Part shown: in pieces, positions 8,000 to 26,048 of the stretch
Layout of the letters: each line of letters begins with the position of its first letter
Numbering within the stretch: position 1 is the first letter of the stretch
NCBI RefSeq assembly: GCF_988243305.1
Contig: NZ_OZ547136.1
Reading direction: 5' to 3' (one strand)
Length of the DNA stretch: 64,000 nucleotides
Program-made: the position numbers and the translations under genes
The notes under the pieces: model-generated
Seen by the model: only the letters and a program-made list of their open reading frames with translations
What the model was told of the DNA's origin: nothing
Databases searched by the model: none

Positions 8000-8620
8000 T
8001 TAATCGTGTTGGCACAGCGTTATGACTATCTTTTCTTTTATCTGCCAGTGCACAGCAAACTGCTCATCCTCTAGTCGAATGATGATCTGCTGTTTATTCA
8101 AGCTAATTATCTGATAATCCAGAAATCCTGCATCAGTTTGTCTCTCCGATGCCTTAAATGCGCTCTCTTTGGCGGAAAATGCCAGTGTTAGCGCCAGAGA
8201 AAAGGTTAAACCGCATTCTGCGAGTCGCTCGTGTTCTGCTGGTGTAATAATGTTGTCTGTCAATTCTCTTGCGGTTTGTACAGAGAAAATCTCTTCGATA
8301 TCAATGCCAATCGGTTGACGAGATACCACGGCTAATGCCGTAGTCCCGCAGTGGCTAATACTGCCGTATACCTCCGCAGGCCACACAGGTTGGCGTAGCT
8401 CGCCGATAGCGGGCACATATTTATAGCCATATTCCCGCAAGGCATAAACAGCAGCGATTCGTCCAGCTAAATGCTCTGTTTTACGTTTACGTCCAGCGTG
8501 TTGCAGTTGTGCGTAGTGTGGCAGCCAGAGTAAATCCTGCTCGCGAAAACTCGCCGGATCGAACTTAACAAAATGCAGCGTATTTCCGGCAAAGGGGAGG
8601 GCGGTATGCGTAGTTTTCAT
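8000..8620 (-). CDS. entD: 4'-phosphopantetheinyl transferase for enterobactin synthase
   Basis: ORF 8000..8770; PPTase motifs PIGIDIEEI and FSAKESAFKA; start ambiguous (MKTTHT at 8620 or MVDMKTT at 8629). Confidence 0.85.
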   Translation of the reverse strand: MKTTHTALPFAGNTLHFVKFDPASFREQDLLWLPHYAQLQHAGRKRKTEHLAGRIAAVYALREYGYKYVPAIGELRQPVWPAEVYGSISHCGTTALAVVSRQPIGIDIEEIFSVQTARELTDNIITPAEHERLAECGLTFSLALTLAFSAKESAFKASERQTDAGFLDYQIISLNKQQIIIRLEDEQFAVHWQIKEKIVITLCQHD

Positions 8621-8655
8621 GTCGACCATATTAGAGACTGATGACAAACGCAAAA

Positions 8656-8755
8656 CTGCCTGATGCGCTACGCTTATCAGGCCTACGTGGTCCTGCAATA
8701 TATTGAATTGGCAAGATTTTTGTAGGCCGGATAAGGCGTTCACGCCGCATCCGGC
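8656..8755. repeat. REP/BIME element (two REP-type palindromic units) between entD and fepA
   Basis: gcctgatgcgctacgcttatcaggcctac and tgtaggccggataaggcgttcacgccgcatccggca match the enterobacterial REP consensus family. Confidence 0.75.
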
Positions 8756-8794
8756 ATGAACTACGCGCACTTTGTCAACAATCTGACGTTAGCA

Positions 8795-11035
8795 TCAGAA
8801 GTGAGTATTAATGCTCATATACCACGTACGTCCCGGCTCGTTATAGGTATATGCCCCGGCACCGGCGATATAGTTGGCTCCTGCCAGATCGCCTGTGGTC
8901 TGGGCATTACCCGCACGCCACAAACGTTTGTCGAACAGGTTGTCCACGCCGCCGGTCAGACTGACATTCTTCGTTACATCCCAGGTCGCGCTCAGGCCAA
9001 CAATGCTGTACGGGCTGATTTCTTTGGTTTCCGGTCCAACCGCTGGCTGACCTTTATAGTTGTACTTCTTCGGCTGCTGCTTGCCGTACCAGGTGAAGGT
9101 TGTTTGCATCGACAAATCTTCCCGTGCCTGCCAGCTCAGCGTTGAGTTCAACGTATACTCCGGGATGATCGACAAACGGTCGCCCGTGGTTTTGTTTTCA
9201 CTCTTCAGCATATAAGTGATGTTATTGGTCCACATCACCGTTTCGCTAACCGGTACGTTTAACGATCCTTCCAGACCTTCAACCACCGCTTTCGGTACGT
9301 TATCCCACTGATAGAGATCGGTGCCGACTGCGTTTTGCCCTACAGCCACATAGCCCGCTTCAATCTTATTGCGATAATCGTTACGGAACCAGGTGACGCC
9401 CGCCAGCCAGCCGTCGCGTTTGAACTCCAGACCAATCTCTTTGTTGATGCTGGTTTCTGCTTTCAGGTCATCATTACCTTGCAGATAGCAGCCGCCCGCG
9501 CTGGCATAGCAGCCCTGACCTTTACTGTAGAGAATGTAGTTCGGGTTAGTCTGGTACAGACTCGGCGCTTTATAAGCACGGGCAATGCCCATTTTCAGCG
9601 TGAAGTCATCGCCTAAACCTTGCGAGATGTTCAGCGCCGGACTCCAGTTATTGCCAACAATGCTGTGATGATCGAAACGCAGCCCCGGCGTTACGATGGT
9701 GCTGTCAGTCAGCTCCATATTGTTTTCGGCAAATAGCGAGAAAATTTCTGCTTTTGAATACGGGCTACGGTCGGTGGCACTCACGCCATCAATAGCACCG
9801 CCGGTATTCGTCCCAGTGAGCGCCTGGGTGTTGGAACTTAAATCCTTCATCCGCTGCTGATTCCACTCCGTACCCAGCGTCAGCGTCTGGTTAACGAGGA
9901 AATCAATCGGCAGGTTAACTTCGCTGTGCAGCATCACGTCATCGAGATCGATATCGACGAAATCCTGTGTCGCTTTTTCGTTAAATTTCCCTTCGGTACC
10001 GCCCGCCAGACCTTCCGGAATACGCGAGTTACGGGTGTGTTCGTACTGCACCCAGTTGCTGGTGGTCACGCCGTTATCCCAGCCGCCGTTCCATGTCAGC
10101 GAGTAGTTCTGGCGATACAGACGGTTGGTTTCATCGCCATATTTCGAGCGGGTATAGGAGTCAGAGTTGGTGTTCTGGGTGTCGCCCGCATACAGGTTAC
10201 CCTGGCGGCTGTAGCCCGCTTCCAGTTCGAGTGATTGCAGAGGCGCGAAGTCCCAGCGCACTACGCCATTAATATCTTTGTTAATTACCCCTTCGCGCCC
10301 GGCTGGTAACGTCGTGGCATACGTTCCGGCACGCGCGGACTGATGGCCCTGGTTGATATCCCACGCGTCAGCCTGGGTTTTGTCGAGGTTGCCATACAAG
10401 CGGAAGCTGAATTCGTCGCCCAGCGGACCGGTCAGGCTGAAGTTGGTGCGTTTAGTGGCACCTTCCTCTTTATGTTCTGGCGCATTGAAATAAGCGTCCC
10501 AGGAGCCGTGCCACTCACCGCTGCCTTTTTTGGTAATGATGTTAACCACGCCGCCCGCCGCGCCGTTGCCATAACGCGCAGCTGCCGGACCACGCAGAAC
10601 TTCAATACGTTCAATCATTTCAGGTGGCACCCAGGAAGTATCACCACGGGTATCGCGCTCGCCACGCCAGCCCTGACGCACCGAGTTACGGCTGCTTACC
10701 GGTTTGCCGTCAATCAAAATCAGCGTGTTTTCCGGACCCATGCCGCGAATATCAATCTGGCGGTTATTACCACGCTGACCACTGGTGGAGTTGCCGGTCA
10801 GGTTAACGCCTGGCATGGTACGGATGATCTCCGACACATCGCGGGCAACCGGGTTTTTGCGGATTTCATCTGCGGTGATGGTCGAAACGCCAGGTGCCTG
10901 CAAGTTCTGCTCGGCGGCGGTAACGACAATGGTATCGTCATGTGAAACAGGAGTATCGGTCGGCTCTTGTGCCTGTGCTACCCCATAAATCCCCAGATTG
11001 ACCAACAAGGCCAGGGAATGAATCTTCTTGTTCAT
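8795..11035 (-). CDS. fepA: TonB-dependent ferric enterobactin outer-membrane receptor
   Basis: ORF 8795..11092; start MNKKIHSLALL with signal peptide; TonB box DTIVVTA; C-terminal aromatic terminus ...NTHF. Confidence 0.95.
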   Translation of the reverse strand: MNKKIHSLALLVNLGIYGVAQAQEPTDTPVSHDDTIVVTAAEQNLQAPGVSTITADEIRKNPVARDVSEIIRTMPGVNLTGNSTSGQRGNNRQIDIRGMGPENTLILIDGKPVSSRNSVRQGWRGERDTRGDTSWVPPEMIERIEVLRGPAAARYGNGAAGGVVNIITKKGSGEWHGSWDAYFNAPEHKEEGATKRTNFSLTGPLGDEFSFRLYGNLDKTQADAWDINQGHQSARAGTYATTLPAGREGVINKDINGVVRWDFAPLQSLELEAGYSRQGNLYAGDTQNTNSDSYTRSKYGDETNRLYRQNYSLTWNGGWDNGVTTSNWVQYEHTRNSRIPEGLAGGTEGKFNEKATQDFVDIDLDDVMLHSEVNLPIDFLVNQTLTLGTEWNQQRMKDLSSNTQALTGTNTGGAIDGVSATDRSPYSKAEIFSLFAENNMELTDSTIVTPGLRFDHHSIVGNNWSPALNISQGLGDDFTLKMGIARAYKAPSLYQTNPNYILYSKGQGCYASAGGCYLQGNDDLKAETSINKEIGLEFKRDGWLAGVTWFRNDYRNKIEAGYVAVGQNAVGTDLYQWDNVPKAVVEGLEGSLNVPVSETVMWTNNITYMLKSENKTTGDRLSIIPEYTLNSTLSWQAREDLSMQTTFTWYGKQQPKKYNYKGQPAVGPETKEISPYSIVGLSATWDVTKNVSLTGGVDNLFDKRLWRAGNAQTTGDLAGANYIAGAGAYTYNEPGRTWYMSINTHF

Positions 11036-11196
11036 TGTTTTATTCCTGCATTTTTGCCACGAATTGCAACTGTCGGGCATGGTCGTCATCAATACGACGC
11101 ACCCCGCTACCGCGAAAACCTTTGATCCTGAAAGACACGCAGTGCAGTTGGTTAATTAATGTCCGCGCTTCCCACGGCGCGCCATTACGCTATTGC

Positions 11197-11232
11197 AAAT
11201 GCAAATAGTTATCAATAATATTATCAATATAT
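11197..11232. promoter_or_regulatory. Candidate Fur box(es) in the divergent fepA / fes-ybdZ-entF promoter region
   Basis: aaatagttatcaataatattatcaatat resembles overlapping GATAAT-type Fur hexamers. Confidence 0.55.
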
Positions 11233-11277
11233 TTCTGCAATCAATGAAAAATTGCACAGTAAACATGGGGTTATGGT

Positions 11278-12480
11278 GTGACGGCGTTAAAAGTAGGAAG
11301 TGAGAGCTGGTGGCAGTCGAAACATGGCCCGGAATGGCAGCGTCTGAATGACGAAATGTTTGAGGTCACTTTCTGGTGGCGTGATCCCCAAGGTTCTGAA
11401 GAATACTCGACGATAAAGCGCGTATGGGTCTACATCACTGGTGTGACCGATCACCATCAGAACAGCCAGCCCCAGTCGATGCAGCGAATTGCAGGTACCA
11501 ACGTCTGGCAGTGGACGACACAACTTAATGCCAACTGGCGCGGCAGCTACTGTTTTATTCCCACCGAACGCGATGACATTTTTTCTGCACCATCCCCCGA
11601 TCGCCTCGAATTACGTGAAGGCTGGCGAAAACTATTACCCCAGGCGATAGCCGATCCGCTGAATCCACAAAGCTGGAAAGGCGGGCGAGGGCACGCTGTT
11701 TCTGCACTCGAAATGCCGCAAGCGCCTCTGCAACCGGGATGGGATTGTCCGCAAGCGCCAGAAATACCTGTCAAAGAAATTATCTGGAAAAGTGAACAGT
11801 TGAAAAATTCACGCCGTGTATGGATTTTTACCACCGGCGATGCAACAGCAGAAGAACGCCCGCTGGCAGTTTTGCTTGATGGCGAATTTTGGGCGCAGAG
11901 TATGCCCGTCTGGCCTGCGCTGACTTCGCTGACCCATCGTCGGCAACTTCCTCCCGCCGTGTATGTGTTGATCGACGCTATCGACACCACGCACCGCGCT
12001 CACGAACTGCCGTGTAATGCGGATTTCTGGCTGGCAGTACAGCAAGAGTTATTACCCCTGGTGAAAGCTATTGCCCCTTTTAGCGATCGCGCCGATCGCA
12101 CCGTGGTCGCCGGGCAGAGTTTTGGTGGGCTTTCCGCGCTGTATGCCGGACTGCACTGGCCTGAACGCTTTGGCTGTGTATTAAGCCAGTCAGGATCGTA
12201 CTGGTGGCCGCATCGGGGCGGGCAGCAAGAAGGTGTTTTACTTGAGCAACTTAAAGCTGGTCAAGTTAGTGCCGAAGGTCTGCGCATTGTGCTGGAAGCG
12301 GGTATTCGCGAGCCGATGATCATGCAGGCCAATCAGGCGCTGTATGCGCAATTACACCCCATAAAAGAATCCATTTTCTGGCGTCAGGTTGACGGCGGAC
12401 ATGATGCGCTTTGTTGGCGCGGTGGCTTGATGCAGGGGCTAATCGACCTCTGGCAACCACTTTTCCATGACAGGAGTTGA
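11278..12480 (+). CDS. fes: Ferric enterobactin esterase
   Basis: 400-aa ORF with GTG start; esterase motif GQSFGG; MTALKVGSESWW... Confidence 0.9.
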   Translation: MTALKVGSESWWQSKHGPEWQRLNDEMFEVTFWWRDPQGSEEYSTIKRVWVYITGVTDHHQNSQPQSMQRIAGTNVWQWTTQLNANWRGSYCFIPTERDDIFSAPSPDRLELREGWRKLLPQAIADPLNPQSWKGGRGHAVSALEMPQAPLQPGWDCPQAPEIPVKEIIWKSEQLKNSRRVWIFTTGDATAEERPLAVLLDGEFWAQSMPVWPALTSLTHRRQLPPAVYVLIDAIDTTHRAHELPCNADFWLAVQQELLPLVKAIAPFSDRADRTVVAGQSFGGLSALYAGLHWPERFGCVLSQSGSYWWPHRGGQQEGVLLEQLKAGQVSAEGLRIVLEAGIREPMIMQANQALYAQLHPIKESIFWRQVDGGHDALCWRGGLMQGLIDLWQPLFHDRS

Positions 12481-12482
12481 AT

Positions 12483-12701
12483 ATGGCATTCAGTAATCCC
12501 TTCGATGATCCGCAGGGAGCGTTTTACATTTTGCGCAATGCGCAGGGGCAATTCAGTCTGTGGCCGCAACAATGCGCCTTACCGGCAGGCTGGGACGTTG
12601 TGTGTCAGCCGCAGTCACAGGCGTCCTGCCAGCAGTGGCTTGAAGCCCACTGGCGTACTCTGACACCGGCGAATTTCACCCAGTTGCAGGAGGCACAATG
12701 A
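12483..12701 (+). CDS. ybdZ: MbtH-like protein
   Basis: 72 aa from ATG at 12483; conserved Trp residues of the MbtH fold (SLWP, GWD); its stop overlaps the entF start. Confidence 0.9.
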   Translation: MAFSNPFDDPQGAFYILRNAQGQFSLWPQQCALPAGWDVVCQPQSQASCQQWLEAHWRTLTPANFTQLQEAQ

Positions 12702-15700
12702 GCCAGCATTTACCTTTGGTCGCCGCACAGCCCGGCATCTGGATGGCAGAAAAACTGTCGGATTTACCCTCCGCCTGGAGCGTGGCGCATTACGTTGAGT
12801 TAACCGGAGAGGTTGATGCGCCATTACTGGCCCGCGCGGTGGTTGCCGGATTAGCGCAAGCAGATACGCTGCGGATGCGTTTTACGGAAGATAACGGCGA
12901 AGTCTGGCAGTGGGTCGATGATGCGCTGACGTTCGAACTGCCAGAAATTATCGATCTGCGTACCAACATTGATCCGCACGGTACTGCGCAGGCATTAATG
13001 CAGGCGGATTTACAGCAAAATCTACGTGCCGACAGCGGCAAACCGCTGGTCTTTCATCAGCTCATTCAGGTGGCAGATAACCGCTGGTATTGGTATCAGC
13101 GTTATCACCATTTGTTGGTCGATGGCTTCAGTTTCCCGGCAATTACCCGCCAGATCGCCAATATTTACTGCGCATGGCTGCGTGGCGAACCAACGCCTGC
13201 TTCGCCGTTTACGCCTTTCGCTGATGTCGTGGAAGAGTACCAGCAATACCGCGAAAGCGAAGCCTGGCAGCGAGATGCGGCATTCTGGACGGAACAGCGT
13301 CGTCAACTGCCGCCGCCCGCGTCACTTTCTCCGGCACCTTTACCGGGGCGCAGCGTCTCGGCAGATATTCTGCGCCTGAAACTGGAGTTTACCGACGGGG
13401 AATTCCGCCAGCTGGCTATGCAACTTTCAGGTGTGCAGCGTACCGATTTAGCCCTTGCGCTGGCGGCTTTGTGGCTGGGGCGATTGTGCAATCGCATGGA
13501 CTACGCCGCCGGATTTATCTTTATGCGTCGACTGGGCTCGGCGGCGCTGACGGCTACCGGACCCGTGCTCAACGTTTTGCCGTTGGGGATTCACATTGCG
13601 GCACAAGAAACGCTGCCGGAACTGGCAACCCGACTGGCAGCACAACTGAAAAAAATGCGTCGTCATCAACGTTACGATGCCGAACAAATTGTCCGTGACA
13701 GCGGGCGAGCGGCAGGAGAGGAACCGCTGTTCGGTCCGGTACTCAATATCAAGGTATTTGATTACCAACTGGATATTCCTGGTGTTCAGACGCAAACCCA
13801 TACCCTGGCAACCGGTCCGGTTAATGACCTTGAACTGGCCCTGTTCCCGGATGAACACGGTGATTTGAGTATTGAGATCCTCGCCAATAAACAGCGTTAC
13901 GATGAGCCAACGTTAATTCAACACGCTGAACGCCTGAAAATGCTGATTGCCCAGTTCGCCGCGGATCCGGCGCTGTTGTGCGGCGATGTCGATATTATGC
14001 TGCCAGGTGAATATGCGCAGCTGGCGCAGATCAACGCCACTCAGGTTGAGATTCCAGAAACCACGCTGAGCGCGCTGGTGGCAGAACAAGCGGCAAAAAC
14101 GCCGCATGCTCCGGCGCTGGCAGATGCGCGTTACCAGTTCAGCTATCGGGAAATGCGCGAGCAGGTGGTGGCGCTGGCGAATCTGCTGCGTGAGCGCGGC
14201 GTTAAACCAGGGGACAGCGTGGCGGTGGCATTACCGCGCTCGGTCTTTTTGACCCTGGCGCTACATGCGATAGTTGAAGCTGGCGCGGCCTGGCTACCGC
14301 TGGATACCGGTTATCCGGACGATCGCCTGAAAATGATGCTGGAAGATGCGCGTCCGTCGCTGTTAATCACCACCGACGATCAACTGCCGCGCTTTGCCGA
14401 TGTTCCAGATTTAACCAACCTTTGCTATAACGCCCCGCTTACACCGCAGGGCAGTGCGCCGCTGCAGCTTTCACAACCGCACCACACGGCTTATATCATC
14501 TTCACCTCAGGTTCCACCGGCAGACCAAAAGGGGTAATGGTCGGGCAGACGGCTATCGTTAACCGCCTGCTTTGGATGCAAAACCACTACCCGCTTACAG
14601 GCGAAGATGTCGTTGCCCAAAAAACGCCGTGCAGTTTTGATGTCTCGGTGTGGGAGTTTTTCTGGCCGTTTATTGCCGGGGCTAAACTGGTGATGGCTGA
14701 ACCGGAAGCGCACCGCGACCCGCTCGCTATGCAGCAATTCTTTGCCGAATATGGTGTAACGACCACGCACTTTGTGCCGTCGATGCTGGCGGCATTTGTT
14801 GCATCGCTGACTCCGCAAACCGCTCGCCAGAATTGCGCGACGTTGAAACAGGTTTTCTGTAGTGGTGAGGCCTTACCCGCTGATTTATGCCGCGAATGGC
14901 AACAGTTAACCAGCGTGCCGTTGCATAATTTATATGGCCCGACGGAAGCGGTGGTAGATGTCAGCTGGTATCCGGCTTTTGGCGAGGAACTGGCACAGGT
15001 ACGCGGCAGCAGTGTGCCGATTGGTTATCCGGTGTGGAACACGGGCCTGCGTATTCTTGATGCAATGATGCATCCGGTGCCGCCGGGTGTGGCGGGAGAT
15101 CTCTATCTCACCGGTATTCAACTGGCGCAGGGGTATCTTGGACGACCCGATCTGACCGCCAGCCGCTTTATTGCCGATCCTTTTGCCCCAGGTGAAAGGA
15201 TGTACCGTACCGGAGACGTTGCCCGCTGGCTGGATAACGGCGCGGTGGAGTACCTCGGGCGCAGTGACGATCAGCTAAAAATTCGCGGGCAGCGTATTGA
15301 ACTGGGCGAAATCGATCGCGTGATGCAGGCACTGCCGGATGTCGAACAGGCCGTTACCCACGCCTGTGTGATTAACCAGGCGGCAGCCACTGGTGGTGAT
15401 GCGCGTCAGTTGGTGGGCTATCTGGTGTCGCAATCGGGCCTGCCGTTGGATACCAGCGCATTACAGGCGCAGCTTCGCGAAACATTGCCACCACATATGG
15501 TGCCAGTGGTTCTGCTGCAACTTCCACAGTTACCTCTTAGCGCCAACGGCAAGCTGGATCGCAAAGCCTTACCGTTGCCTGAACTGAAAGCACAAGCGCC
15601 GGGGCGTGCGCCGAAAGCGGGCAGTGAAACGATTATCGCCGCGGCATTCTCGTCGTTGCTGGGTTGTGACGTGCAGGATGCCGATGCTGATTTCTTTGCG

Positions 15701-16579
15701 CTTGGCGGTCATTCGCTACTGGCAATGAAACTGGCTGCGCAGTTAAGTCGGCAGTTTACCCGCCAGGTGACGCCGGGGCAGGTGATGGTCGCGTCAACTG
15801 TCGCCAAACTGGCAACGATTATTGATGGTGAAGAAGACAGCACCCAGCGCATGGGATTCGAAACCATTCTGCCGTTGCGTGAAGGTAATGGCCCGACGCT
15901 GTTTTGTTTCCATCCGGCATCCGGTTTTGCCTGGCAGTTTAGCGTGCTTTCGCGTTATCTCGATCCACAATGGTCGATTATCGGCATTCAGTCGCCGCGC
16001 CCTCATGGCCCCATGCAGACGGCGGCAAACCTGGATGAAGTCTGCGAAGCGCATCTGGCAACGTTACTTGAACAACAACCGCACGGCCCTTATTACCTGC
16101 TGGGGTATTCGCTGGGCGGTACGCTGGCGCAGGGCATTGCGGCGCGACTGCGTGCCCGTGGCGAACAGGTGGCATTTCTTGGCTTGCTGGATACCTGGCC
16201 GCCAGAAACGCAAAACTGGCAGGAAAAAGAGGCTAATGGTCTGGACCCGGAAGTGCTGGCGGAGATTAACCGCGAGCGCGAGGCCTTCCTGGCGGCACAA
16301 CAGGGAAGTACTTCAACGGATTTGTTTACCACCATTGAAGGCAACTACGCTGATGCTGTGCGCCTGCTGACGACTGCTCATAGCGTACCGTTTGAAGGTA
16401 AAGCGACGCTGTTTGTTGCTGAACGCACACTTCAGGAAGGTATGAATCCCGAACGCGCCTGGTCGCCGTGGATTGCGGAGCTGGATATCTATCGTCAGGA
16501 TTGTGCGCATGTGGATATTATCTCTCCAGGGGCGTTTGAAAAAATTGGGCCGATTATTCGCGCTACGCTAAACAGGTAA
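12698..16579 (+). CDS. entF: Enterobactin NRPS, serine-activating (C-A-PCP-TE)
   Basis: 1293 aa; condensation motif YHHLLVDGFS, adenylation motif FTSGSTGRPKGV, PCP motif LGGHSL, thioesterase motif GYSLGG. Confidence 0.95.
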   Translation: MSQHLPLVAAQPGIWMAEKLSDLPSAWSVAHYVELTGEVDAPLLARAVVAGLAQADTLRMRFTEDNGEVWQWVDDALTFELPEIIDLRTNIDPHGTAQALMQADLQQNLRADSGKPLVFHQLIQVADNRWYWYQRYHHLLVDGFSFPAITRQIANIYCAWLRGEPTPASPFTPFADVVEEYQQYRESEAWQRDAAFWTEQRRQLPPPASLSPAPLPGRSVSADILRLKLEFTDGEFRQLAMQLSGVQRTDLALALAALWLGRLCNRMDYAAGFIFMRRLGSAALTATGPVLNVLPLGIHIAAQETLPELATRLAAQLKKMRRHQRYDAEQIVRDSGRAAGEEPLFGPVLNIKVFDYQLDIPGVQTQTHTLATGPVNDLELALFPDEHGDLSIEILANKQRYDEPTLIQHAERLKMLIAQFAADPALLCGDVDIMLPGEYAQLAQINATQVEIPETTLSALVAEQAAKTPHAPALADARYQFSYREMREQVVALANLLRERGVKPGDSVAVALPRSVFLTLALHAIVEAGAAWLPLDTGYPDDRLKMMLEDARPSLLITTDDQLPRFADVPDLTNLCYNAPLTPQGSAPLQLSQPHHTAYIIFTSGSTGRPKGVMVGQTAIVNRLLWMQNHYPLTGEDVVAQKTPCSFDVSVWEFFWPFIAGAKLVMAEPEAHRDPLAMQQFFAEYGVTTTHFVPSMLAAFVASLTPQTARQNCATLKQVFCSGEALPADLCREWQQLTSVPLHNLYGPTEAVVDVSWYPAFGEELAQVRGSSVPIGYPVWNTGLRILDAMMHPVPPGVAGDLYLTGIQLAQGYLGRPDLTASRFIADPFAPGERMYRTGDVARWLDNGAVEYLGRSDDQLKIRGQRIELGEIDRVMQALPDVEQAVTHACVINQAAATGGDARQLVGYLVSQSGLPLDTSALQAQLRETLPPHMVPVVLLQLPQLPLSANGKLDRKALPLPELKAQAPGRAPKAGSETIIAAAFSSLLGCDVQDADADFFALGGHSLLAMKLAAQLSRQFTRQVTPGQVMVASTVAKLATIIDGEEDSTQRMGFETILPLREGNGPTLFCFHPASGFAWQFSVLSRYLDPQWSIIGIQSPRPHGPMQTAANLDEVCEAHLATLLEQQPHGPYYLLGYSLGGTLAQGIAARLRARGEQVAFLGLLDTWPPETQNWQEKEANGLDPEVLAEINREREAFLAAQQGSTSTDLFTTIEGNYADAVRLLTTAHSVPFEGKATLFVAERTLQEGMNPERAWSPWIAELDIYRQDCAHVDIISPGAFEKIGPIIRATLNR

Positions 16580-16794
16580 ATTAATATTATCCATAAACCC
16601 ATAATTACAGGAAATGATTATGGGTTTATCATTTATTTGATTTATAAGTTTGGTGGATATTTCTCTTAAATAGAGTGAATGTTGCATTCAGTGGAAGGAA
16701 TTTACAAACTTCAGCTTCGGATAATTCTCACCAACTGGTAAAGTGAGCGCCGTGGAGATTTCCCCCTATTGGACTCATTTTCAGGTTATACCCC

Positions 16795-17928
16795 ATGTCA
16801 TCACTGAATATTAAACAGGGAAGTGACGCTCATTTTCCCGAGTATCCTCTGGCGTCGCCCAGTAATAATGAAATTGATTTACTTAATCTAATCGCAGTTT
16901 TATGGCGGGCCAAAAAAACGGTCATGGCGGTCATTTTTGCATTTGCCTGCGCAGGTTTACTGATCTCTTTCATCCTGCCGCAAAAATGGACCAGCGCGGC
17001 GGTTGTCACGCCTCCAGAACCTGTTCAGTGGCAAGAGCTGGAGAAAACATTCACTAAGCTTCGAGTGCTGGATCTGGATATCAAAATTGATCGTACAGAA
17101 GCATTTAACCTGTTTATCAAGAAGTTTCAGTCGGTTAGCTTGCTGGAAGAGTACCTGCGTTCATCACCTTATGTGATGGACCAATTAAAAGAGGCGAAAA
17201 TCGACGAACTGGATTTGCATCGCGCAATTGTCGCATTGAGCGAAAAAATGAAAGCGGTTGATGACAATGCCAGTAAGAAAAAAGATGAACCGTCACTTTA
17301 TACCTCCTGGACGCTAAGTTTTACCGCGCCAACCAATGAAGAGGCGCAAACCGTTTTGAGCGGGTATATCGATTATATCTCTGCTCTGGTGGTGAAAGAG
17401 TCGATAGAAAATGAGCGCAATAGACTGGAGCTTAAAACCCAGTTTGAAAAAGAAAAACTGGCTCAGGACCGCATTAAAATGAAAAATCAACTTGATGCAA
17501 ACATTCAGCGCCTCAATTATTCACTCGACATTGCCAACGCGGCAGGAATTAAAAAGCCCGTTTACAGTAATGGTCAGGCCGTTAAAGATGACCCCGATTT
17601 CTCTATTTCTCTCGGCGCAGACGGTATTGAACGCAAACTGGAAATTGAAAAAGCGGTTACTGACGTTGCGGAACTGAACGGTGAATTACGTAATCGTCAG
17701 TATCTTGTCGAGCAATTAACAAAAGCAAATATCAACGATGTGAATTTTACGCCGTTTAAATATCAGTTAAGCCCGTCATTGCCAGTGAAAAAAGACGGTC
17801 CGGGTAAGGCGATTATTGTGATCCTTTCTGCGATGGTCGGCGGGATGGTGGCTTGTGGTGGCGTGCTGTTGCGCTATGCGATGGCATCCAGAAAACAGGA
17901 TGCCGTGATGGAAGAGCACTTAGTTTAA
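16795..17928 (+). CDS. fepE: Polysaccharide co-polymerase (Wzz-like) FepE
   Basis: 377 aa; N- and C-terminal TM segments flanking a coiled-coil periplasmic domain. Confidence 0.9.
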   Translation: MSSLNIKQGSDAHFPEYPLASPSNNEIDLLNLIAVLWRAKKTVMAVIFAFACAGLLISFILPQKWTSAAVVTPPEPVQWQELEKTFTKLRVLDLDIKIDRTEAFNLFIKKFQSVSLLEEYLRSSPYVMDQLKEAKIDELDLHRAIVALSEKMKAVDDNASKKKDEPSLYTSWTLSFTAPTNEEAQTVLSGYIDYISALVVKESIENERNRLELKTQFEKEKLAQDRIKMKNQLDANIQRLNYSLDIANAAGIKKPVYSNGQAVKDDPDFSISLGADGIERKLEIEKAVTDVAELNGELRNRQYLVEQLTKANINDVNFTPFKYQLSPSLPVKKDGPGKAIIVILSAMVGGMVACGGVLLRYAMASRKQDAVMEEHLV

Positions 17929-18740
17929 ATCTTGGCAGTTGAAGGTGCCGTTCGTCCGAGCGGCACCACGAGCGGAGTTCCGGCTACCGGATCGTCAATA
18001 ATCATGCAGCGCAGACCATAAATGCGCTCGATCAATTCAGCAGTGACAATCTCCTTCGGCGCTCCCTGAGCAACAATTTTCCCTTCCCGCAATGCAATCA
18101 AATGGCTGGCGTAACGACAGGCCTGATTAAGATCGTGCAGCACCGCCGCCAGGGTATAGCCTTTCTCGCGGTTCAGTTCGCTTAACAGTTCCAGCAAATC
18201 AATCTGATGACTGATATCCAGCCAGGTCGTTGGTTCATCGAGCAGCATAATTGCCGTTTCCTGGGCCAGCACCATTGCTATCCACGCTCGCTGGCGTTGT
18301 CCGCCAGAAAGGGTATCCACGCTTTGATCCGCCAGATGGGTGATTCCCGTGGCCTGCATCGCTTTTGTGACGGCCTCTTCATCTTCTTTGCGCCAGCGGG
18401 TAAACAGCGGTTGATGCGGGTAACGCCCACGCGCCACCAGCTCCTGCACGGTGATATCTCCCGGCGTGGTGGCGTTTTGCGCCAACAGGCCAATCCGGCG
18501 TGCAACCTCTTTACTGGCGTAATGTTGAATGTGCTCACCATCCAGCCAGACATGCCCGTGAGCAGGCGTCATCAGGCGGCTTAAGGTACGCAGTAACGTG
18601 GATTTACCGCAGCCATTTGGCCCGATAATTGCCGTGAAGTGACCATCAGGTATTTCTACAGTCAGATTTTCTGCAACGGTATATTTGCCATATCCGAGGG
18701 TTAACTGTTCGCCGCGCAAACGGGCTACTGATTCGGTCAT
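17925..18740 (-). CDS. fepC: Ferric enterobactin ABC transporter ATPase
   Basis: ORF 17925..18881; start MTESVARL; Walker A GPNGCGKST, signature LSGGQRQR, Walker B LLLDEP. Confidence 0.9.
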   Translation of the reverse strand: MTESVARLRGEQLTLGYGKYTVAENLTVEIPDGHFTAIIGPNGCGKSTLLRTLSRLMTPAHGHVWLDGEHIQHYASKEVARRIGLLAQNATTPGDITVQELVARGRYPHQPLFTRWRKEDEEAVTKAMQATGITHLADQSVDTLSGGQRQRAWIAMVLAQETAIMLLDEPTTWLDISHQIDLLELLSELNREKGYTLAAVLHDLNQACRYASHLIALREGKIVAQGAPKEIVTAELIERIYGLRCMIIDDPVAGTPLVVPLGRTAPSTAKI

Positions 18741-19729
18741 TTTTTGCGAGACTCCTGAATTAACAAGACGATAAGGTAAATACCACCGAGGCTGACGGTA
18801 ACGACGCCAACCGGAAGTTGATACGGCATAAACAGTTGTTGGGCGCATAGATCGGCCGCCAGCAGTAACAACGCCCCGCACAGCGCCGCCTGGGTCAGCC
18901 CCCAGCGAGCGGTGCCGCTAATGCGCCGGGCAATGTGTGGCGCGACTAAAGCAATAAAGGAAATCGGCCCGGCAAGCGCCGTTGCCGCAGCGGTGAGCAC
19001 CACTGCCACCAGCATCATTAACAGCCGCGAACGTTCGACGCTGACGCCCAACGCACACGCGGTATCATCGCCCATTTCCAGCAAGCGCATCCGGCGTACC
19101 AGTAAGGCGGCGGCAATGAGCATCAATATAATGATGGGCGCGGAAGGCGAGGTTTTTGCCCACGTCAGGCCGTTGAGCGATCCGGCATTCCACAAACCCG
19201 CTGTTAGCGCCGTTTCTAAAGACGCTTTCAGCAACAACCAGGTATTAAAGGCCACCAGCATGGCGCGAACACCGATACCGATAATAATCAACCGAAAGGT
19301 GTCGATACCGTTACGCCAGGCAAGCAGCCAGACCAGCAGCGAGGTGACAATGCCGCCCACCATTGCTGCCAGGGCGATAGCCGTCAGGTCCTGACCAAAC
19401 AGCACCATCGCCACCAGCACGCCGCTCCACGCCCCGGTGTTAAAGCCCATTACGTCAGGGCTGCCGAGCGGGTTACGCATCAGCGACTGAAAAATCGCGC
19501 CGCTGACGCCCAGAGCCGCGCCAATTAACAGCGCCATCAGCACGCGTGGTAAACGCCATTCGGTGACCACCATCGTCATACTGCGCGGCGCATCGCCCAT
19601 CAGCGCGGCGAATATCTGCGAGGTTTCCAGCGTGACGGCACCGCTGCGTAATCCCCAGATACCTGCAACCACACAGGCGGTAATTAGCAGCAAACAGGTG
19701 ATGATTAATCGGCGAGAGACGTAAATCAT
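18737..19729 (-). CDS. fepG: Ferric enterobactin ABC transporter permease
   Basis: 330-aa polytopic FecCD-family permease; 4-bp overlap with fepC. Confidence 0.9.
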   Translation of the reverse strand: MIYVSRRLIITCLLLITACVVAGIWGLRSGAVTLETSQIFAALMGDAPRSMTMVVTEWRLPRVLMALLIGAALGVSGAIFQSLMRNPLGSPDVMGFNTGAWSGVLVAMVLFGQDLTAIALAAMVGGIVTSLLVWLLAWRNGIDTFRLIIIGIGVRAMLVAFNTWLLLKASLETALTAGLWNAGSLNGLTWAKTSPSAPIIILMLIAAALLVRRMRLLEMGDDTACALGVSVERSRLLMMLVAVVLTAAATALAGPISFIALVAPHIARRISGTARWGLTQAALCGALLLLAADLCAQQLFMPYQLPVGVVTVSLGGIYLIVLLIQESRKK

Positions 19730-20730
19730 GCGCCACCTCGCGTTTTACGTCGCACGAGGAAGATCAGCACCGGTGCGCCAATAAAGGCACTGACTACAGA
19801 AACGCGCAGTTCGCCGGGCACAATCACCCGTCCGATGATATCGGCAAACAGCAGCAGGGCAGGGGTAGCAAGCAGCGTGACGGGCAGCGACCAGCGATGA
19901 TCGGCACCCACCAACCAACGTGCCATATGCGGCATCATCAGGCCAATAAAGGCAATCGGGCCAACTACCGCCGTCGCACTACCACAAAGCACGGTAATCG
20001 CCAGCAGACCAATCAACTGTGTGCGCGCCACGCGACTACCCAGCGCCGTCGCGGTGTCACTGCCGAGGCTTAAACTGTTCAGCGCGCGGCTCAGTAATAG
20101 CGCGGTTGCTCCGGCGATCAGCACCGGGATCAGCACCACTTTTAAGGTATGTAGATTGCGAATATCCAGCGAACCGGCTTGCCAGAAACGCAACTGATCG
20201 TAGACGTCAGGATTAAGCAGGGCGATGCCGCTGGTCAGCCCTTCCAGCACCGCCGCCAGTGCCACGCCCGCCAGGGTTAAACGCACCGGACTTAACTGCC
20301 CGCCGCCCTGGCTGCCGGTAAAGGCAACAATCAATGAGGCCACCAGCGCCCCGGCGAAGGCCATCGCCAGTTGTTCCTGTGCGGAAGAGTAACCAAACAG
20401 CGCCGCACCCAGCACAATGGCAAAGCTGGCTCCGGCGTTCACGCCAAGCAAGCCGGGGTCGGCAAGTGGGTTTCGGGTGAGGGTTTGCATCAGCGCCCCG
20501 GCAAGCCCAAGCGCACCGCCTGCCAGTAAACCGGCAAGGGTGCGCGGCAGACGGGCGTCGAGCACAATGGTGCAGTCGGCGCTCTGGCAGGTGCCGGAGA
20601 GCGCCTCCAGCACTACGGAAGCGGGGAGTGATTTTGCCCCAATGAGCAGGCTTAATGCCGTCGCGATAATCAGTAATAACAGCAATCCGGGCACGGCAAT
20701 GGCGCGTGTCACGGCAACAGAACCAGACAT
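19726..20730 (-). CDS. fepD: Ferric enterobactin ABC transporter permease
   Basis: ORF 19726..20742; start MSGSVAVT (334 aa); FecCD-family permease; 4-bp overlap with fepG. Confidence 0.9.
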   Translation of the reverse strand: MSGSVAVTRAIAVPGLLLLLIIATALSLLIGAKSLPASVVLEALSGTCQSADCTIVLDARLPRTLAGLLAGGALGLAGALMQTLTRNPLADPGLLGVNAGASFAIVLGAALFGYSSAQEQLAMAFAGALVASLIVAFTGSQGGGQLSPVRLTLAGVALAAVLEGLTSGIALLNPDVYDQLRFWQAGSLDIRNLHTLKVVLIPVLIAGATALLLSRALNSLSLGSDTATALGSRVARTQLIGLLAITVLCGSATAVVGPIAFIGLMMPHMARWLVGADHRWSLPVTLLATPALLLFADIIGRVIVPGELRVSVVSAFIGAPVLIFLVRRKTRGGA

Positions 20731-20742
20731 ACGAACTTCCAT

Positions 20743-20770
20743 GATAATGAAATTAATTATCGTTATCGAT
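20743..20770. promoter_or_regulatory. Candidate Fur box in the divergent fepD / entS promoter
   Basis: gataatgaaattaattatcgttatc. Confidence 0.5.
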
Positions 20771-20840
20771 CTTATTTGGATATGTTAGCATGTGCAGCCT
20801 AAGAATAGGTATTTAAAATATTTGATGGCAAGGCATTGTA

Positions 20841-22091
20841 ATGAATAAACAATCCTGGCTGCTTAACCTCAGCCTGTTGAAAACGCACCCGGCGTTTCGC
20901 GCAGTATTCCTCGCTCGTTTTATCTCAATTGTGTCTCTGGGTTTGCTCGGCGTCGCGGTGCCGGTGCAGATCCAGATGATGACGCATTCTACCTGGCAGG
21001 TGGGGCTTTCGGTAACGCTGACCGGCGGGGCGATGTTTGTTGGCCTGATGGTCGGCGGTGTGCTGGCGGATCGCTATGAGCGCAAAAAAGTGATTTTGCT
21101 GGCGCGCGGCACCTGTGGCATTGGCTTCATTGGACTGTGCCTGAACGCGCTGCTGCCGGAGCCATCTTTGCTGGCAATCTATTTACTCGGATTATGGGAT
21201 GGTTTTTTCGCATCGCTTGGCGTTACGGCGCTACTGGCGGCGACACCTGCACTGGTAGGGCGTGAAAACTTAATGCAGGCCGGGGCGATCACCATGTTGA
21301 CTGTGCGCCTGGGATCGGTGATTTCGCCTATGATTGGTGGTTTACTGCTGGCGACTGGCGGCGTAGCCTGGAACTACGGGCTGGCGGCGGCGGGCACGTT
21401 TATTACCTTGCTACCGTTGTTAAGCCTTCCGGCGTTACCACCACCACCGCAGCCGCGTGAGCATCCGTTGAAATCATTACTGGCAGGATTTCGTTTTCTA
21501 CTCGCCAGCCCGCTGGTAGGAGGGATTGCGCTGTTGGGGGGGTTATTGACGATGGCGAGCGCGGTGCGGGTACTGTATCCGGCGCTGGCTGACAACTGGC
21601 AGATGTCGGCGGCACAGATTGGTTTTCTCTATGCGGCGATCCCGCTCGGCGCGGCTATTGGCGCGTTAACCAGCGGGAAGCTGGCGCATAGCGCGCGACC
21701 AGGGTTATTGATGCTGCTCTCCACGCTGGGATCGTTCCTCGCCATTGGTCTGTTTGGCCTGATGCCGATGTGGATTTTAGGCGTGGTTTGTCTGGCGCTA
21801 TTCGGCTGGCTGAGCGCGGTCAGCTCGTTGCTGCAATACACAATGCTGCAAACGCAAACCCCGGAAGCGATGTTAGGGCGGATTAACGGTTTGTGGACGG
21901 CGCAAAACGTGACGGGCGATGCCATAGGCGCGGCGCTGCTGGGCGGTTTGGGCGCGATGATGACACCGGTTACTTCCGCAAGCGCGAGCGGTTTTGGATT
22001 GTTGATTATCGGCGTGTTGTTGTTGCTGGTGCTGGTGGAGTTGCGACGTTTTCGCCAGACGCCGCCGCAGGTGACAGCGTCCGACAGTTAA
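20841..22091 (+). CDS. entS: Enterobactin exporter (MFS)
   Basis: 416-aa 12-TM MFS protein. Confidence 0.9.
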
Positions 22092-22094
22092 TGC

Positions 22095-23051
22095 TTAAAA
22101 CAGCGCCTTAAGTCGTTCCAGCACTTGCATGGCGCTGTAGTAATCCAGTCGGAACGTCTCGGTTCCCAGCGCATAAACCTGCTTGTTTTGTACTGCGGGC
22201 AGGTGCGCGAGCAGTGGATTGGCATAAATAGCATCGGCATCTTTCTGATCACCGGCGAACAGGAATAGTGACTCGCCATTTAACCCTGCAGCCAGATTTT
22301 CTCCACCAAGCTGAATGATGTCATGGCGTTTGCCCTGGCTTTGGCTGGCGTTTAACCCTGCTGGCAACTTCGCCAGCGTAAAGCCGAGTTGTTCCAGCAT
22401 CTGCCCTTGTGCTGATTCCGGCGTCCAGAGATTGGCACTGTGCGCGGCGGCGGTATAGACAATGGCAGTGACCGGCTGCGGCGGTAATTTGATTTGCTCT
22501 TTCGCCGCTGCCAGTTGCTTATCAAACTGTGCAATCCGCTCTGCCGCTTGTTTCTCATGCCCGGTAATTTCGCCAAGTTGCGTTAACAGCGACTGCCAGC
22601 TTTTGTCGTCGTAATTGATGATTAATGTCGGGGCGATGGTGGAAAGCTGATCGTATAGCGCCAGCGCCGAATCGCCGCCGGTCGCGCTAATTAAAATCAG
22701 ATCCGGCATTTGCGCGGCAACGGCTTCGGCACTTGGTTCACCGATATAGAGTCGTTGCAATTTGCGTTCTTTCGCTACCTTGCTCCACTGGCGTAAAAAG
22801 CCCTGGTCATCCGCGACGCGGTTATTTGGCGTGGTCGCGCCGCTGGCAATCACCGGAGCATCAATCGCCAGCAGTGAGCCAGTCAGGGTGATGCTGGTGG
22901 AAACAATACGCTGCGGCTGGCTTTCCAGGGTATGAGTGCCCCGGCTGTCAGTAATCTGACGCGGCCAGTCGGCGGCCTGAACTGCGACTATTCCTGAAAG
23001 CAAAAGTCCTGTTAATAGAAGGGCGTTGCGGTAGAGCGAGGCGAGTCTCAC
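22095..23051 (-). CDS. fepB: Periplasmic ferric enterobactin-binding protein
   Basis: 318 aa with signal peptide; class III periplasmic binding protein. Confidence 0.9.
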
Positions 23052-23190
23052 AAATCAGCTTCCTGTTATTAATGAAGTTAATGCTTCTCATTTTCATTGT
23101 AACCACAACCAGATGCAACCCCGAGTTGCAGATTGCGTTACCTCAAGAGTTGACATAGTGCGCGTTTGCTTTTAGGTTAGCGACCGAAAA

Positions 23191-23210
23191 TATAAATGAT
23201 AATCATTATT
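23191..23210. promoter_or_regulatory. Fur box in the divergent fepB / entCEBAH promoter
   Basis: tataaatgataatcattatt matches the Fur consensus GATAATGATAATCATTATC at 15 of 19 positions. Confidence 0.65.
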
Positions 23211-23239
23211 AAAGCCTTTATCATTTTGTGGAGGATGAT

Positions 23240-24415
23240 ATGGATACGTCACTGGCTGAGGAAGTACAGCAGACCATGGCAACACTTGCGCCCAATCGCT
23301 TTTTCTTTATGTCGCCGTACCGCAGTTTTACGACGTCAGGATGTTTCGCCCGCTTCGATGAACCGGCTGTGAACGGGGATTCGCCCGACAGTCCCTTCCA
23401 GCAAAAACTCGCCGCGCTGTTTGCCGATGCCAAAGCGAAGGGCATCAAAAATCCGGTGATGGTCGGGGCGATTCCCTTCGATCCACGTCAGCCTTCATCG
23501 CTGTATATTCCTGAATCCTGGCAGTCGTTCTCCCGCCAGGAAAAACAAGCTTCCGCACGCCGTTTCACCCGCAGCCAGTCGCTGAACGTGGTGGAACGTC
23601 AGGCAATTCCGGATCAAACCACGTTTGAACAGATGGTTGCTCGCGCCGCCGCACTTACCGCCACGCCGCAGGTCGACAAAGTGGTGTTGTCACGGTTGAT
23701 TGATATCACCACTGACGCCGCCATTGATAGTGGCGTATTGCTGGAACGGTTGATTGCGCAAAACCCGGTTAGTTACAACTTCCATGTCCCGCTGGCTGAT
23801 GGTGGCGTTCTGCTGGGGGCCAGCCCGGAACTGCTGCTACGTAAAGACGGCGAGCGTTTTAGCTCCATTCCGTTAGCCGGTTCCGCGCGTCGTCAGCCGG
23901 ATGAAGTGCTCGATCGCGAAGCGGGTAATCGTCTGCTGGCGTCAGAAAAAGATCGCCATGAACATGAACTGGTGACTCAGGCGATGAAAGAGGTACTGCG
24001 AGAACGCAGCAGTGAGTTAAACGTTCCTTCCTCTCCACAATTGATTACCACGCCGACGCTGTGGCATCTCGCAACTCCCTTTGAAGGTAAAGCGAATTCG
24101 CAAGAAAACGCACTGACTCTGGCCTGTCTACTGCATCCGACCCCCGCGCTGAGCGGTTTCCCGCATCAGGCCGCGACTCAGGTTATTGCTGAACTGGAGC
24201 CGTTCGACCGCGAACTGTTTGGCGGCATTGTGGGTTGGTGTGACAGCGAAGGTAACGGTGAATGGGTGGTGACCATCCGCTGCGCGAAGCTGCGGGAAAA
24301 TCAGGTGCGTCTGTTTGCCGGAGCGGGGATTGTGCCTGCGTCCTCACCGTTGGGTGAGTGGCGCGAAACAGGCGTCAAACTTTCTACCATGTTGAACGTT
24401 TTTGGATTGCATTAA
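23240..24415 (+). CDS. entC: Isochorismate synthase
   Basis: ORF 23228..24415; start MDTSLAEEV (391 aa); chorismate-binding enzyme family. Confidence 0.9.
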
Positions 24416-24424
24416 GGAGTGAGG

Positions 24425-26035
24425 ATGAGCATTCCATTCACCCGCTGGCCGGAAGAGTTTGCCCGTCGCTATCGGGAAAAAGGCTACTGGCAGGATTTGC
24501 CGCTGACCGACATTCTGACCCGTCATGCCGCAAGCGACAGCATCGCGGTCATCGACGGCGAGCGGCAGTTGAGTTACCGGGAGCTGAATCAGGCGGCGGA
24601 TAACCTCGCGTGTAGTTTGCGCCGTCAGGGCATTAAACCTGGTGAAACTGCGCTGGTACAACTGGGTAACGTCGCTGAACTTTACATTACTTTTTTCGCG
24701 CTGCTGAAACTGGGCGTTGCGCCGGTGCTGGCGCTGTTCAGCCATCAGCGTAGTGAACTGAACGCCTATGCCAGCCAGATTGAACCGGCGTTACTGATTG
24801 CCGATCGCCAGCATGCGCTGTTTAGCGGAGATGATTTCCTCAATACATTTGTTGCAGAGCATTCCTCCATTCGCGTGGTGCAACTGCACAACGACAGCGG
24901 TGAGCATAATTTGCAGGATGCGATTAACCATCCGGCTGAGGATTTTACTGCCACGCCGTCACCTGCTGATGAAGTGGCCTATTTCCAGCTTTCCGGCGGC
25001 ACCACCGGCACACCGAAACTGATCCCGCGCACTCATAACGACTATTACTACAGCGTGCGTCGTAGCGTCGAGATTTGTCAGTTCACACAACAGACACGCT
25101 ACCTGTGCGCGATCCCGGCGGCTCATAACTACGCCATGAGTTCGCCAGGATCGCTGGGCGTATTTCTCGCTGGCGGCACTGTCGTTCTGGCTGCCGACCC
25201 CAGCGCCACGCTCTGCGTCCCATTGATTGAAAAACATCAGGTGAACGTCACCGCGCTGGTGCCACCCGCAGTCAGCCTGTGGTTACAGGCGCTGACCGAA
25301 GGCGAAAGCCGGGCGCAGCTTGCCTCGCTGAAACTGTTACAGGTCGGTGGTGCACGTCTTTCTGCCACGCTTGCGGCGCGTATTCCCGCAGAGATTGGCT
25401 GCCAGTTACAGCAGGTATTCGGCATGGCGGAAGGACTGGTGAACTACACCCGACTTGATGATAGCGCGGAGAAAATAATCCATACCCAGGGCTATCCAAT
25501 GTGTCCGGACGATGAAGTGTGGGTTGCCGATGCCGAAGGAAATCCACTGCCGCAAGGGGAAGTCGGACGCCTGATGACGCGCGGTCCGTACACCTTCCGC
25601 GGCTATTACAAAAGCCCGCAGCACAATGCCAGCGCCTTTGATGCCAACGGTTTTTACTGTTCTGGCGATCTGATCTCTATTGATCCAGAGGGGTACATCA
25701 CCGTGCAGGGGCGCGAGAAAGATCAGATCAACCGTGGCGGCGAGAAGATCGCTGCCGAAGAGATCGAAAACCTGCTGCTGCGCCATCCGGCGGTGATCTA
25801 CGCCGCACTGGTGAGTATGGAAGATGAGCTGATGGGCGAAAAAAGCTGTGCTTATCTGGTGGTAAAAGAGCCTCTACGCGCGGTGCAGGTGCGTCGTTTC
25901 CTGCGTGAACAGGGTATTGCCGAATTTAAATTACCGGATCGCGTGGAGTGTGTGGATTCACTTCCGCTGACGGCGGTCGGGAAAGTCGATAAAAAACAAT
26001 TACGTCAGTGGCTGGCGTCACGCGCATCAGCCTGA
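24425..26035 (+). CDS. entE: 2,3-dihydroxybenzoate-AMP ligase
   Basis: ORF 24419..26035; start MSIPFTRW (536 aa); adenylation motif SGGTTGTPK. Confidence 0.9.
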
Positions 26036-26048
26036 AGGAGAGAACACG

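Follow-up and report, generated by a model that had tools for sequence, protein, structure and literature searches.

The 64,000-nucleotide stretch of DNA analysed here (the window; contig NZ_OZ547136.1 of NCBI RefSeq assembly GCF_988243305.1) carries what is, at a probability that we put at roughly 95%, a canonical and intact Escherichia coli enterobactin cluster, its transcription organised by three short divergent regions under the control of Fur. This is the architecture already known from K-12, and an arrangement with three control regions has been stated in the literature (PMC4911079); a complete enterobactin system with intact Fur control would be the default for E. coli and, taken alone, would have little import beyond annotation. 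A first-pass annotation of the same DNA had described three divergent Fur-box promoters; the three spacers stand, and the description needs amending in that they hold four operators, fepB having its own, and in that fepE is not simply covered by them. The comparison across genera set out below provides a clean phylogenetic footprint of these four operators and their predicted promoters; of the leads that emerged, only a polymorphism in the fepB leader is in any way novel, and modestly so.

The ent/fep/fes cluster occupies positions 8000-28068 and comprises 16 genes, colinear with K-12 MG1655 by open reading frame (ORF) listing and megablast. The gene map was assembled from that listing together with annotation carried over from K-12 MG1655 and from the closest genome, strain Z1323HEC0462 (H1), which shares 98.5% identity over a 20-kb query from the locus; 5411 of 5426 complete E. 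coli genomes match at least 80% of this query by megablast. At the left end, on the minus strand, lie entD (8000-8620), an annotated ortholog encoding the phosphopantetheinyl transferase and the second gene of the fepA-entD unit, and fepA (8795-11035), encoding the outer-membrane ferric enterobactin receptor. On the plus strand follow fes (11278-12480; enterochelin esterase, with a GTG start), ybdZ (12483-12701; MbtH-like, assigned by annotation transfer and alignment to K-12), entF (12698-16579; nonribosomal peptide synthetase), and fepE, or wzz(fepE) (16795-17928; assigned by annotation transfer, alignment, and NCBIfam). The fepD-fepG-fepC operon runs along the minus strand at 17925-20730—fepC (17925-18740), fepG (18737-19729), and fepD (19726-20730), each above its equivalog cut-off—and is followed by entS (20841-22091, plus strand; enterobactin exporter) and fepB (22095-23051, minus strand; periplasmic binding protein, with a GTG start). 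The plus-strand entC-entE-entB-entA-entH operon (23240-28068) completes the cluster, with entC at 23240-24415, entE at 24425-26035, entB at 26049-26906, entA at 26906-27652, and entH at 27655-28068.

Alignment to K-12 is ungapped for each of the 16 genes, with equal length, equal start and stop codons, and 92.8-100% amino acid identity, and in this alignment no inactivating lesion—frameshift, premature stop, insertion sequence (IS), or deletion—was found in any of them. Coding nucleotide identity to K-12 is 94-99% and synonymous divergence is ~13%; the ratio of nonsynonymous to synonymous divergence (dN/dS) is 0.061 for the locus at a dS of 0.129 and ranges from 0.00 to 0.31 per gene between the window and K-12, the mark of purifying selection. 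Fourteen of the 16 proteins pass curated NCBIfam cut-offs at full length, 13 of them as equivalogs and FepA against a FepA-family subfamily model (1281 bits, cut-off 493). Equivalog cut-offs are passed by the biosynthetic EntC, EntE, EntA, EntF (2804 bits, cut-off 2400, full length), EntD (415 bits, cut-off 169), and EntH, and likewise by Fes (707 bits, cut-off 222), EntS (716 bits, cut-off 324), and FepB (519 bits, cut-off 205). EntB and YbdZ gave no NCBIfam match at E <= 1e-20; EntB is 100% identical to its K-12 counterpart, and YbdZ has 70 of 72 residues as in K-12. The full biosynthetic set (entC, entB, entA, entE, entF, and entD, plus ybdZ and entH) is present at full length, as is the set for export, uptake, and release (entS, fepA, fepB, fepD, fepG, fepC, and fes), the latter above curated cut-offs throughout. 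FepA is 99.5% identical to K-12 at the amino acid level, and the most divergent proteins are EntD (15 of 206 residues, 92.8% identity, without internal stops and identical in H1), EntF (31 of 1293), FepE (18 of 377), and Fes (10 of 400). These results bear out the first-pass statement that the enterobactin system is complete; that it is also functional is probable as far as sequence reaches, and we infer that siderophore production would follow. Relative to H1, entD, fepA, fepG, and fepD are identical, and the segment farthest from that genome is fes-ybdZ-entF-fepE (11278-17928; 8, 1, 18, and 13 amino acid differences, respectively), an unevenness that suggests a recombination mosaic.

Evidence for Fur control comes from scanning the whole window. 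A first scan counted raw matches to the consensus GATAATGATAATCATTATC across the 64 kb and found at least 15 of 19 matching bases at only four positions, all of them within the fepD/entS and fepB/entC spacers—20743 (16/19) and 20749, 23077, and 23192 (15/19 each); the fepA/fes spacer attained 13, 12, 12, and 12 of 19 at 11195, 11201, 11207, and 11213. We also scored the window with a position weight matrix (PWM) of symmetric log-odds derived from 14 K-12 sites outside the ent system (fhuA, gpmA, fur, tonB, sufA, cir, mntH, exbB, bfd, ryhB, sodA, fhuF, fecA, and fecI; coordinates from PMC2189734), leaving the ent sites out of training to avoid circularity. Each training site was the best consensus match at most 22 bp from the published centre, the choice for fhuF lying 20 bp off; leave-one-out scores of the training sites spanned 3.3-22.7 bits, and the ent operators score within that range. 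The four top sites of the window all fall in the divergent spacers: entC at 23192-23210 (20.3 bits, rank 1), fepD/entS at 20749-20767 (20.2 bits) and 20743-20761 (19.7 bits), and fepB at 23077-23095 (18.7 bits). The best non-operator match, at 58313-58331, reaches 14.3 bits, and the best single site of fepA/fes, at 11201-11219, 13.2 bits. In 200 dinucleotide-preserving shuffles of the window, 0.03 sites of at least 18.7 bits were expected, against four observed, and 0.8 sites of at least 13.2 bits, against seven observed.

In published descriptions, a Fur operator is a cluster whose sites overlap at 6-bp intervals (PMC2189734); we scored such clusters with an ad hoc statistic that adds up the positive PWM scores of four positions spaced by 6 bp. 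The three highest clusters of the window are those of the three spacers—49.9 for fepD/entS, 48.9 for entC, and 38.4 for fepA/fes—with the next at 23.5, and a score of 38.4 was reached anywhere by only one of 200 shuffled windows. The spacers have a G+C content (GC) of 0.31-0.43 and their AT-rich cores one of 0.23-0.33; of 2,000 shuffles confined to a given spacer or core, no more than 0.15% came up to the cluster score of the native sequence (p <= 0.0015). Top four sites and top three clusters of the 64 kb together confirm the Fur boxes that the first-pass annotation had placed in all three divergent spacers (11036-11277, 20731-20840, and 23052-23239, limits that agree with ours), and the box coordinates it gave (11197-11232, 20743-20770, and 23191-23210) lie inside the clusters. 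Its ranking of the fepB/entC box as the best match survives narrowly by PWM (20.3 versus 20.2 bits) and fails by raw consensus count, where 20743-20761 is higher. As a check on the boxes, the matrix scan speaks clearly for the entC and fepD/entS sites (19.7-20.3 bits), whereas the fepA/fes single site is weak and that spacer becomes convincing only as an array. Other Fur-like matches (16864, 58313, 3945, 35188, 52786, and 49460), placed through alignment of the window with the annotated H1 genome, were set aside, being coding or at most 14.3 bits and without an ent-like cluster. The best of the non-ent ones are at ybeF and lipB—the 14.3-bit match at 58313-58331 lies at the 5' end of ybeF, and a cluster of 23.3 in the ybeF-lipB spacer region at 58360-58396—yet shuffles can reach such scores.

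K-12 DNase I footprints are listed for fepA-fes, fepB, entC, and fepD-entS (PMC2189734 Table 3); we converted their coordinates to the window and verified the conversion against gene starts. The divergent fepA/fes spacer (242 bp, 11036-11277) has two differences from K-12 and holds a Fur array common to both genes, with four overlapping 19-mers 6 bp apart at 11195-11231 (10.8, 13.2, 7.3, and 7.0 bits at 11195, 11201, 11207, and 11213), identified by PWM and K-12 footprint. The footprint maps to 11186-11233, where the window is identical at 48 of 48 positions. In an alignment of 14 genera, a near-invariant block of ~45 bp at 11187-11231 (ACGCTATTGCAAATGCAAATAGTTATCAATAATATTATCAATA) stands amid an otherwise indel-rich spacer, and its core motif recurs in 62 of 64 species. 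The fepA/fes box is convincing because array score, cross-species conservation, and K-12 footprint combine. Conserved hexamers would place a fes promoter at TTGCAA (-35, 11193-11198) and, after 17 nt, TAATAT (-10, 11216-11221), and a fepA promoter at TTGATA (-35, 11215->11210) and, again after 17 nt, TAGCGT (-10, 11192->11187), so that the two promoters would interdigitate under one Fur array that spans both. Adjoining this block is an inverted repeat at 11165-11180 (minus strand), GCGCTTCCCACGGCGC (GCGCTTCCCAC(A/G)GCGC), kept in most genera; it possibly forms a hairpin at the extreme 5' end of the predicted fepA mRNA, and the repeat is without covariation by which to probe such a hairpin.

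The second spacer, between fepD and entS (110 bp, 20731-20840), is identical to K-12 and, for the majority of 78 species, measures 107-112 bp. The array common to fepDGC and entS extends over 20743-20773, with positive PWM scores in 6-bp register at 20743, 20749, and 20755 (19.7, 20.2, and 8.3 bits; cluster 49.9). The corresponding K-12 footprint maps to 20712-20780, identical in the window at 69 of 69 positions. A near-invariant block at 20742-20798 among the 14 genera lies at this operator, the motif itself being found in 76 of 78 species. The conserved TATGTT at 20781-20786 is a likely -10 element of entS, whose -35 region the Fur array would then cover. The position of the fepD promoter is ambiguous—TTGCCA-18-TATTCT (20831->20802) would place the array in the leader, in agreement with the conclusion of Chen et al. 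for fepD-entS (PMC2189734). A leaderless fepD transcript from TCGATA-17-TATCAT was rejected as the main promoter, as it would remove the GGAAG Shine-Dalgarno sequence.

The fepB/entC spacer (188 bp, 23052-23239), a short form relative to the 374 bp of K-12, holds two operators that are separate and ~90 bp apart, one per promoter, which makes four operators in three spacers; in having two, the window is like K-12 (PMC2189734). The fepB operator (23077-23095) consists of one strong site (18.7 bits) and a weak one, and falls on a near-invariant block at 23079-23096 among the 14 genera, with TCTCATTTTCA in 72 of 75 species and TGCAA in 74 of 75. Its K-12 footprint maps to 23071-23101, where the window is identical at 23 of 31 positions, the eight differing bases all lying within a K-12-specific insertion. 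The predicted fepB promoter, TTGCAT (-35, 23118->23113), 17 nt, and GAAAAT (-10, 23095->23090), would have its -10 and +1 covered by this operator. The entC array (23186-23222; 11.6, 20.3, 13.2, and 3.9 bits at 23186, 23192, 23198, and 23204; cluster 48.9) contains TGATAATCATTATTA, with 13 of 14 specified positions of the 7-1-7 motif; the K-12 footprint maps to 23186-23234 and is identical in the window at 49 of 49 positions. The array equals a near-invariant block at 23186-23222 among the 14 genera, its motif is present in 74 of 75 species, and GTTGACA is present in 74 of 75. A putative entC promoter, TTGACA (-35, 23149-23154), 18 nt, and TAGGTT (-10, 23173-23178), would put the start of the operator at about +1, just downstream of the promoter.

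The difference in spacer length traces to the fepB leader, which in K-12 contains a GC-rich palindromic element of 186 bp (L002 17539-17724) that the window lacks. In K-12 this element folds at -100 kcal/mol (z = -4.8), and its insertion point corresponds to window position 23078/23079, a few bases downstream of the predicted fepB start. The long form of the spacer is present in 2,755 of 5,425 E. coli genomes, the remainder being short like the window. We take the short form to be ancestral because the spacer measures 166-189 bp in 68 of 75 other species, with the remaining seven showing other length increases there; in this form, the fepB promoter and Fur operator lie ~30 nt from the Shine-Dalgarno sequence. 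If the element alters mRNA stability, translation, or termination, the long structured leader of K-12 would be a derived, strain-variable state—a proposal that we hold tentatively, with the odds against it. Were it true, the dosage of FepB relative to other uptake components would differ among E. coli lineages. The polymorphism is a small reminder that a regulatory map drawn from K-12 need be neither ancestral nor universal.

Conservation was measured at two depths. Against K-12, the three spacers together show two substitutions in 513 aligned bp, to be set against the locus dS of 0.129. For the wider comparison, a FepC search with one genome per species yielded 487 hits, of which the best 80 were retained, all from Enterobacteriaceae and covering ~20 genera (Escherichia, Citrobacter, Salmonella, Klebsiella, Raoultella, Enterobacter, Kosakonia, Leclercia, Lelliottia, Yokenella, Trabulsiella, and others); the best FepC match among these one-genome-per-species loci was the E. 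albertii representative locus (99%, E = 0). That the window might belong to an Escherichia other than E. coli was considered and set aside, given its colinearity with an E. coli genome at 98.5-99.3% nucleotide identity. Spacers were recovered from 64 species for fepA/fes, 78 for fepD/entS, and 75 for fepB/entC, and every recoverable spacer contains a Fur array, with minimum cluster scores of 31.4, 43.6, and 28.0, respectively. Clusters at a score reached by only 5% of shuffled windows were present in 64/64, 78/78, and 73/75 of these spacers. In the alignment of 14 genera, the operators and plausible -35/-10 hexamers are where the invariant blocks fall, and the remainder of each spacer is full of substitutions and indels; over or beside each operator, conserved hexamers at 17-18 bp spacing can be placed, and it is on this conservation and spacing that the predicted hexamers and start sites rest. 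Transcription would start at about 11228 for fes, 11180 for fepA, 23185 for entC, and 23083 for fepB, whereas the starts of entS and fepD are ambiguous, near 20793-20795. An Rfam search of the three spacers gave no match. Two ent loci of Enterobacteriaceae type (L064 and L094) occurred in records named ‘Chryseobacterium sp. 18061’ and as a ‘Proteobacteria bacterium’ metagenome-assembled genome, and are probably contaminated or mislabelled.

A mechanism consistent with these observations can be outlined. When iron is sufficient, Fe2+-Fur dimers would occupy overlapping 19-bp sites arrayed in 6-bp phase; with these arrays over the predicted sigma-70 hexamers or immediately downstream of them, RNA polymerase would be excluded or blocked, Fur multimers acting by promoter occlusion or by a promoter-proximal block. 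One array would serve both fepA-entD and fes-ybdZ-entF and another both fepDGC and entS, while in the fepB/entC spacer back-to-back promoters would be served by one operator apiece. Under iron scarcity, Fur would depart and six transcripts would be made, and within the operons stop/start overlaps and internal Shine-Dalgarno sequences would probably couple translation. Occupancy of these operators by Fur and repression of the flanking genes in the source strain are what this mechanism predicts.

Several points weigh against this reading. The fepA/fes spacer offers only a weak single site, of a strength (13.2 bits) that arises by chance ~0.8 times per window; the way in which training sites were chosen biases the PWM towards the consensus; and a scan for generic sigma-70 promoters in the three spacers showed no excess over shuffles, although that scan also overlooked the conserved entC TTGACA/TAGGTT and is thus uninformative. 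For fepD-entS, Chen et al. 2007 put the Fur cluster past the promoters but ahead of the start codons and suggested only weak repression (PMC2189734), in contrast to Beauchene et al., who class fepDGC and entS as strongly Fur-repressed (PMC4676285). The simplest competing account, that the Fur-box matches arose by chance in AT-rich promoter DNA and are uninformative on regulation, draws on the weak fepA/fes score, on the AT-richness of the Fur consensus itself and of the spacers and cores in which it is found, and on further AT-rich places that score 11-14 bits (e.g., 58313, 16864, and 35188). On the contrary, dinucleotide shuffles of spacer or core rarely or never attain the cluster scores, the operator blocks are invariant across ~20 genera while the adjoining AT-rich spacer diverges, and in K-12 the blocks are where DNase I footprints lie; we regard chance as having next to no probability. 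A subtler alternative is that conservation of the blocks stems mainly from promoter elements or other DNA or RNA signals, such as other regulators or mRNA 5' structures, and not from Fur. The fepA/fes block lends this some substance—it is conserved at nearly all bases over ~45 bp, beyond the needs of a degenerate Fur matrix, it holds plausible -35/-10 hexamers for both directions, and the conserved GC inverted repeat beside it is not Fur-like—but such signals are compatible with Fur control, Fur footprints the same bases in K-12, positive PWM scores recurring every 6 bp are a hallmark of Fur, and repression is expected to work through operators that overlap promoters. We consider this alternative unlikely, though not to the degree of chance.

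It is also conceivable that the locus merely looks intact and that the system is nonfunctional or not Fur-regulated, through missense changes or a defect in trans in fur, tonB, or exbBD, all of which lie beyond the window. Amino acid differences from K-12 in EntD, EntF, FepE, and Fes would be candidates for such changes, the fes-entF-fepE segment is the one that differs most from the nearest genome, and sequence alone cannot give function. Yet per-gene dN/dS is low (maximum 0.31) and frameshifts and stops are absent, the EntD and FepA alleles are identical in another complete genome, and the proteins match curated equivalog models at full length and above cut-off. A silent locus is therefore improbable in our estimation, less so than a chance origin of the Fur boxes and more so than conservation through other signals, and an intact enterobactin cluster under Fur control in three divergent regions is the reading that we retain.

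Within the transcription units, the junctions are short. The gaps are +2 nt at fes/ybdZ and entA/entH, +9 nt at entC/entE, and +13 nt at entE/entB; ybdZ/entF, fepD/fepG, and fepG/fepC share ATGA overlaps (-4 nt), and entB and entA overlap by one base (-1 nt). These measurements agree with the tight packing and overlap reported by the first-pass annotation for fes-ybdZ-entF, fepD-fepG-fepC, and entB-entA. All of the junctions listed have a Shine-Dalgarno-like motif ahead of the downstream gene. Motifs of the AGGAG/GGAGG/GAGG type lie inside the upstream genes, 6-10 nt before the starts, at the -4, -4, -4, -1, +2, and +2 junctions, and stop/start overlaps together with these motifs suggest that translation is probably coupled at the overlapping junctions. 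The exception to this compactness is fepE, which starts 215 bp past entF and whose end overlaps that of the convergent fepC by 4 nt. A terminator-like hairpin with a 15-bp stem and T run (16593-16629, plus strand) sits directly 3' of entF; given this hairpin and the 215-bp gap, fepE is not obviously driven by the fes promoter, and its standing as a plain member of the fes-entF transcript appears doubtful. A Fur-like site of 13.9 bits (16864-16882) lies within fepE codons 24-29, with the same sequence in K-12 and H1; it is single and without a strong cluster.

Outside the locus, the rest of the window is colinear with H1 at 99.1-99.3% nucleotide identity and is ordinary E. coli chromosome, with cusA, pheP, and ybdG on the left and cstA through mrdA on the right. 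Adjoining entD are tandem hok/sok (hokE-type) toxin-antitoxin copies (7046-7202 and 7550-7706, in repeat units at ~6978-7368 and ~7482-7872). The fepA-entD intergenic region (8621-8794) contains palindromes of the repetitive extragenic palindromic (REP)/bacterial interspersed mosaic element (BIME) type, and Rfam ES036 (CssrF) matches there at 8679-8720 on the minus strand with 42 bits, barely over the gathering score. Further Rfam matches are STnc70 in the dsbG-ahpC spacer (36992-37085, plus strand), the rnk leader (40964-41072, minus strand), and a cspA-type thermoregulator upstream of cspE (54143-54501, plus strand). Relative to H1, the window has ~80 bp extra in the ahpC-ahpF intergenic region (37814-37893) and is without the IS200C that H1 carries between uspG and ahpF (~39658-39675).

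Set beside known systems, the window is closest to the ent cluster of K-12, with which it shares gene order, orientations, lengths, start and stop codons, and overlaps, as well as identical footprinted operators at fepA-fes, fepD-entS, and entC; the two differ beside entD, where K-12 has one hokE copy and then IS186 and the window has two tandem hok/sok copies and no IS186. Strong Fur repression has been reported for fes, fepDGC, entS, and entCEBAH (PMC4676285), and a Salmonella fur mutant shows derepressed fepA, fes, and entC (PMC3212961). The ent/fep loci of Salmonella, Citrobacter, Klebsiella, Enterobacter, and Kosakonia keep the three divergent spacers and their Fur blocks; in these and related loci, the fepA/fes spacer ranges from 133 to 379 bp and flanks vary, some related species carry insertions in the fepD/entS or fepB/entC spacers, and the top score within fepD/entS is 22.0 bits for most genera versus 20.2 in Escherichia. 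Other footprinted E. coli Fur operators—fhuF, cir, fecI, sodA, ryhB, and iucA among them (PMC2189734)—resemble those of the ent cluster, which are likewise AT-rich and built from two to four overlapping 19-mers in 6-bp phase and would likewise lie over or beside promoter elements. Unlike those E. coli operators, the fepA/fes array has no strong single site, and two of the ent operators each serve two divergent promoters.

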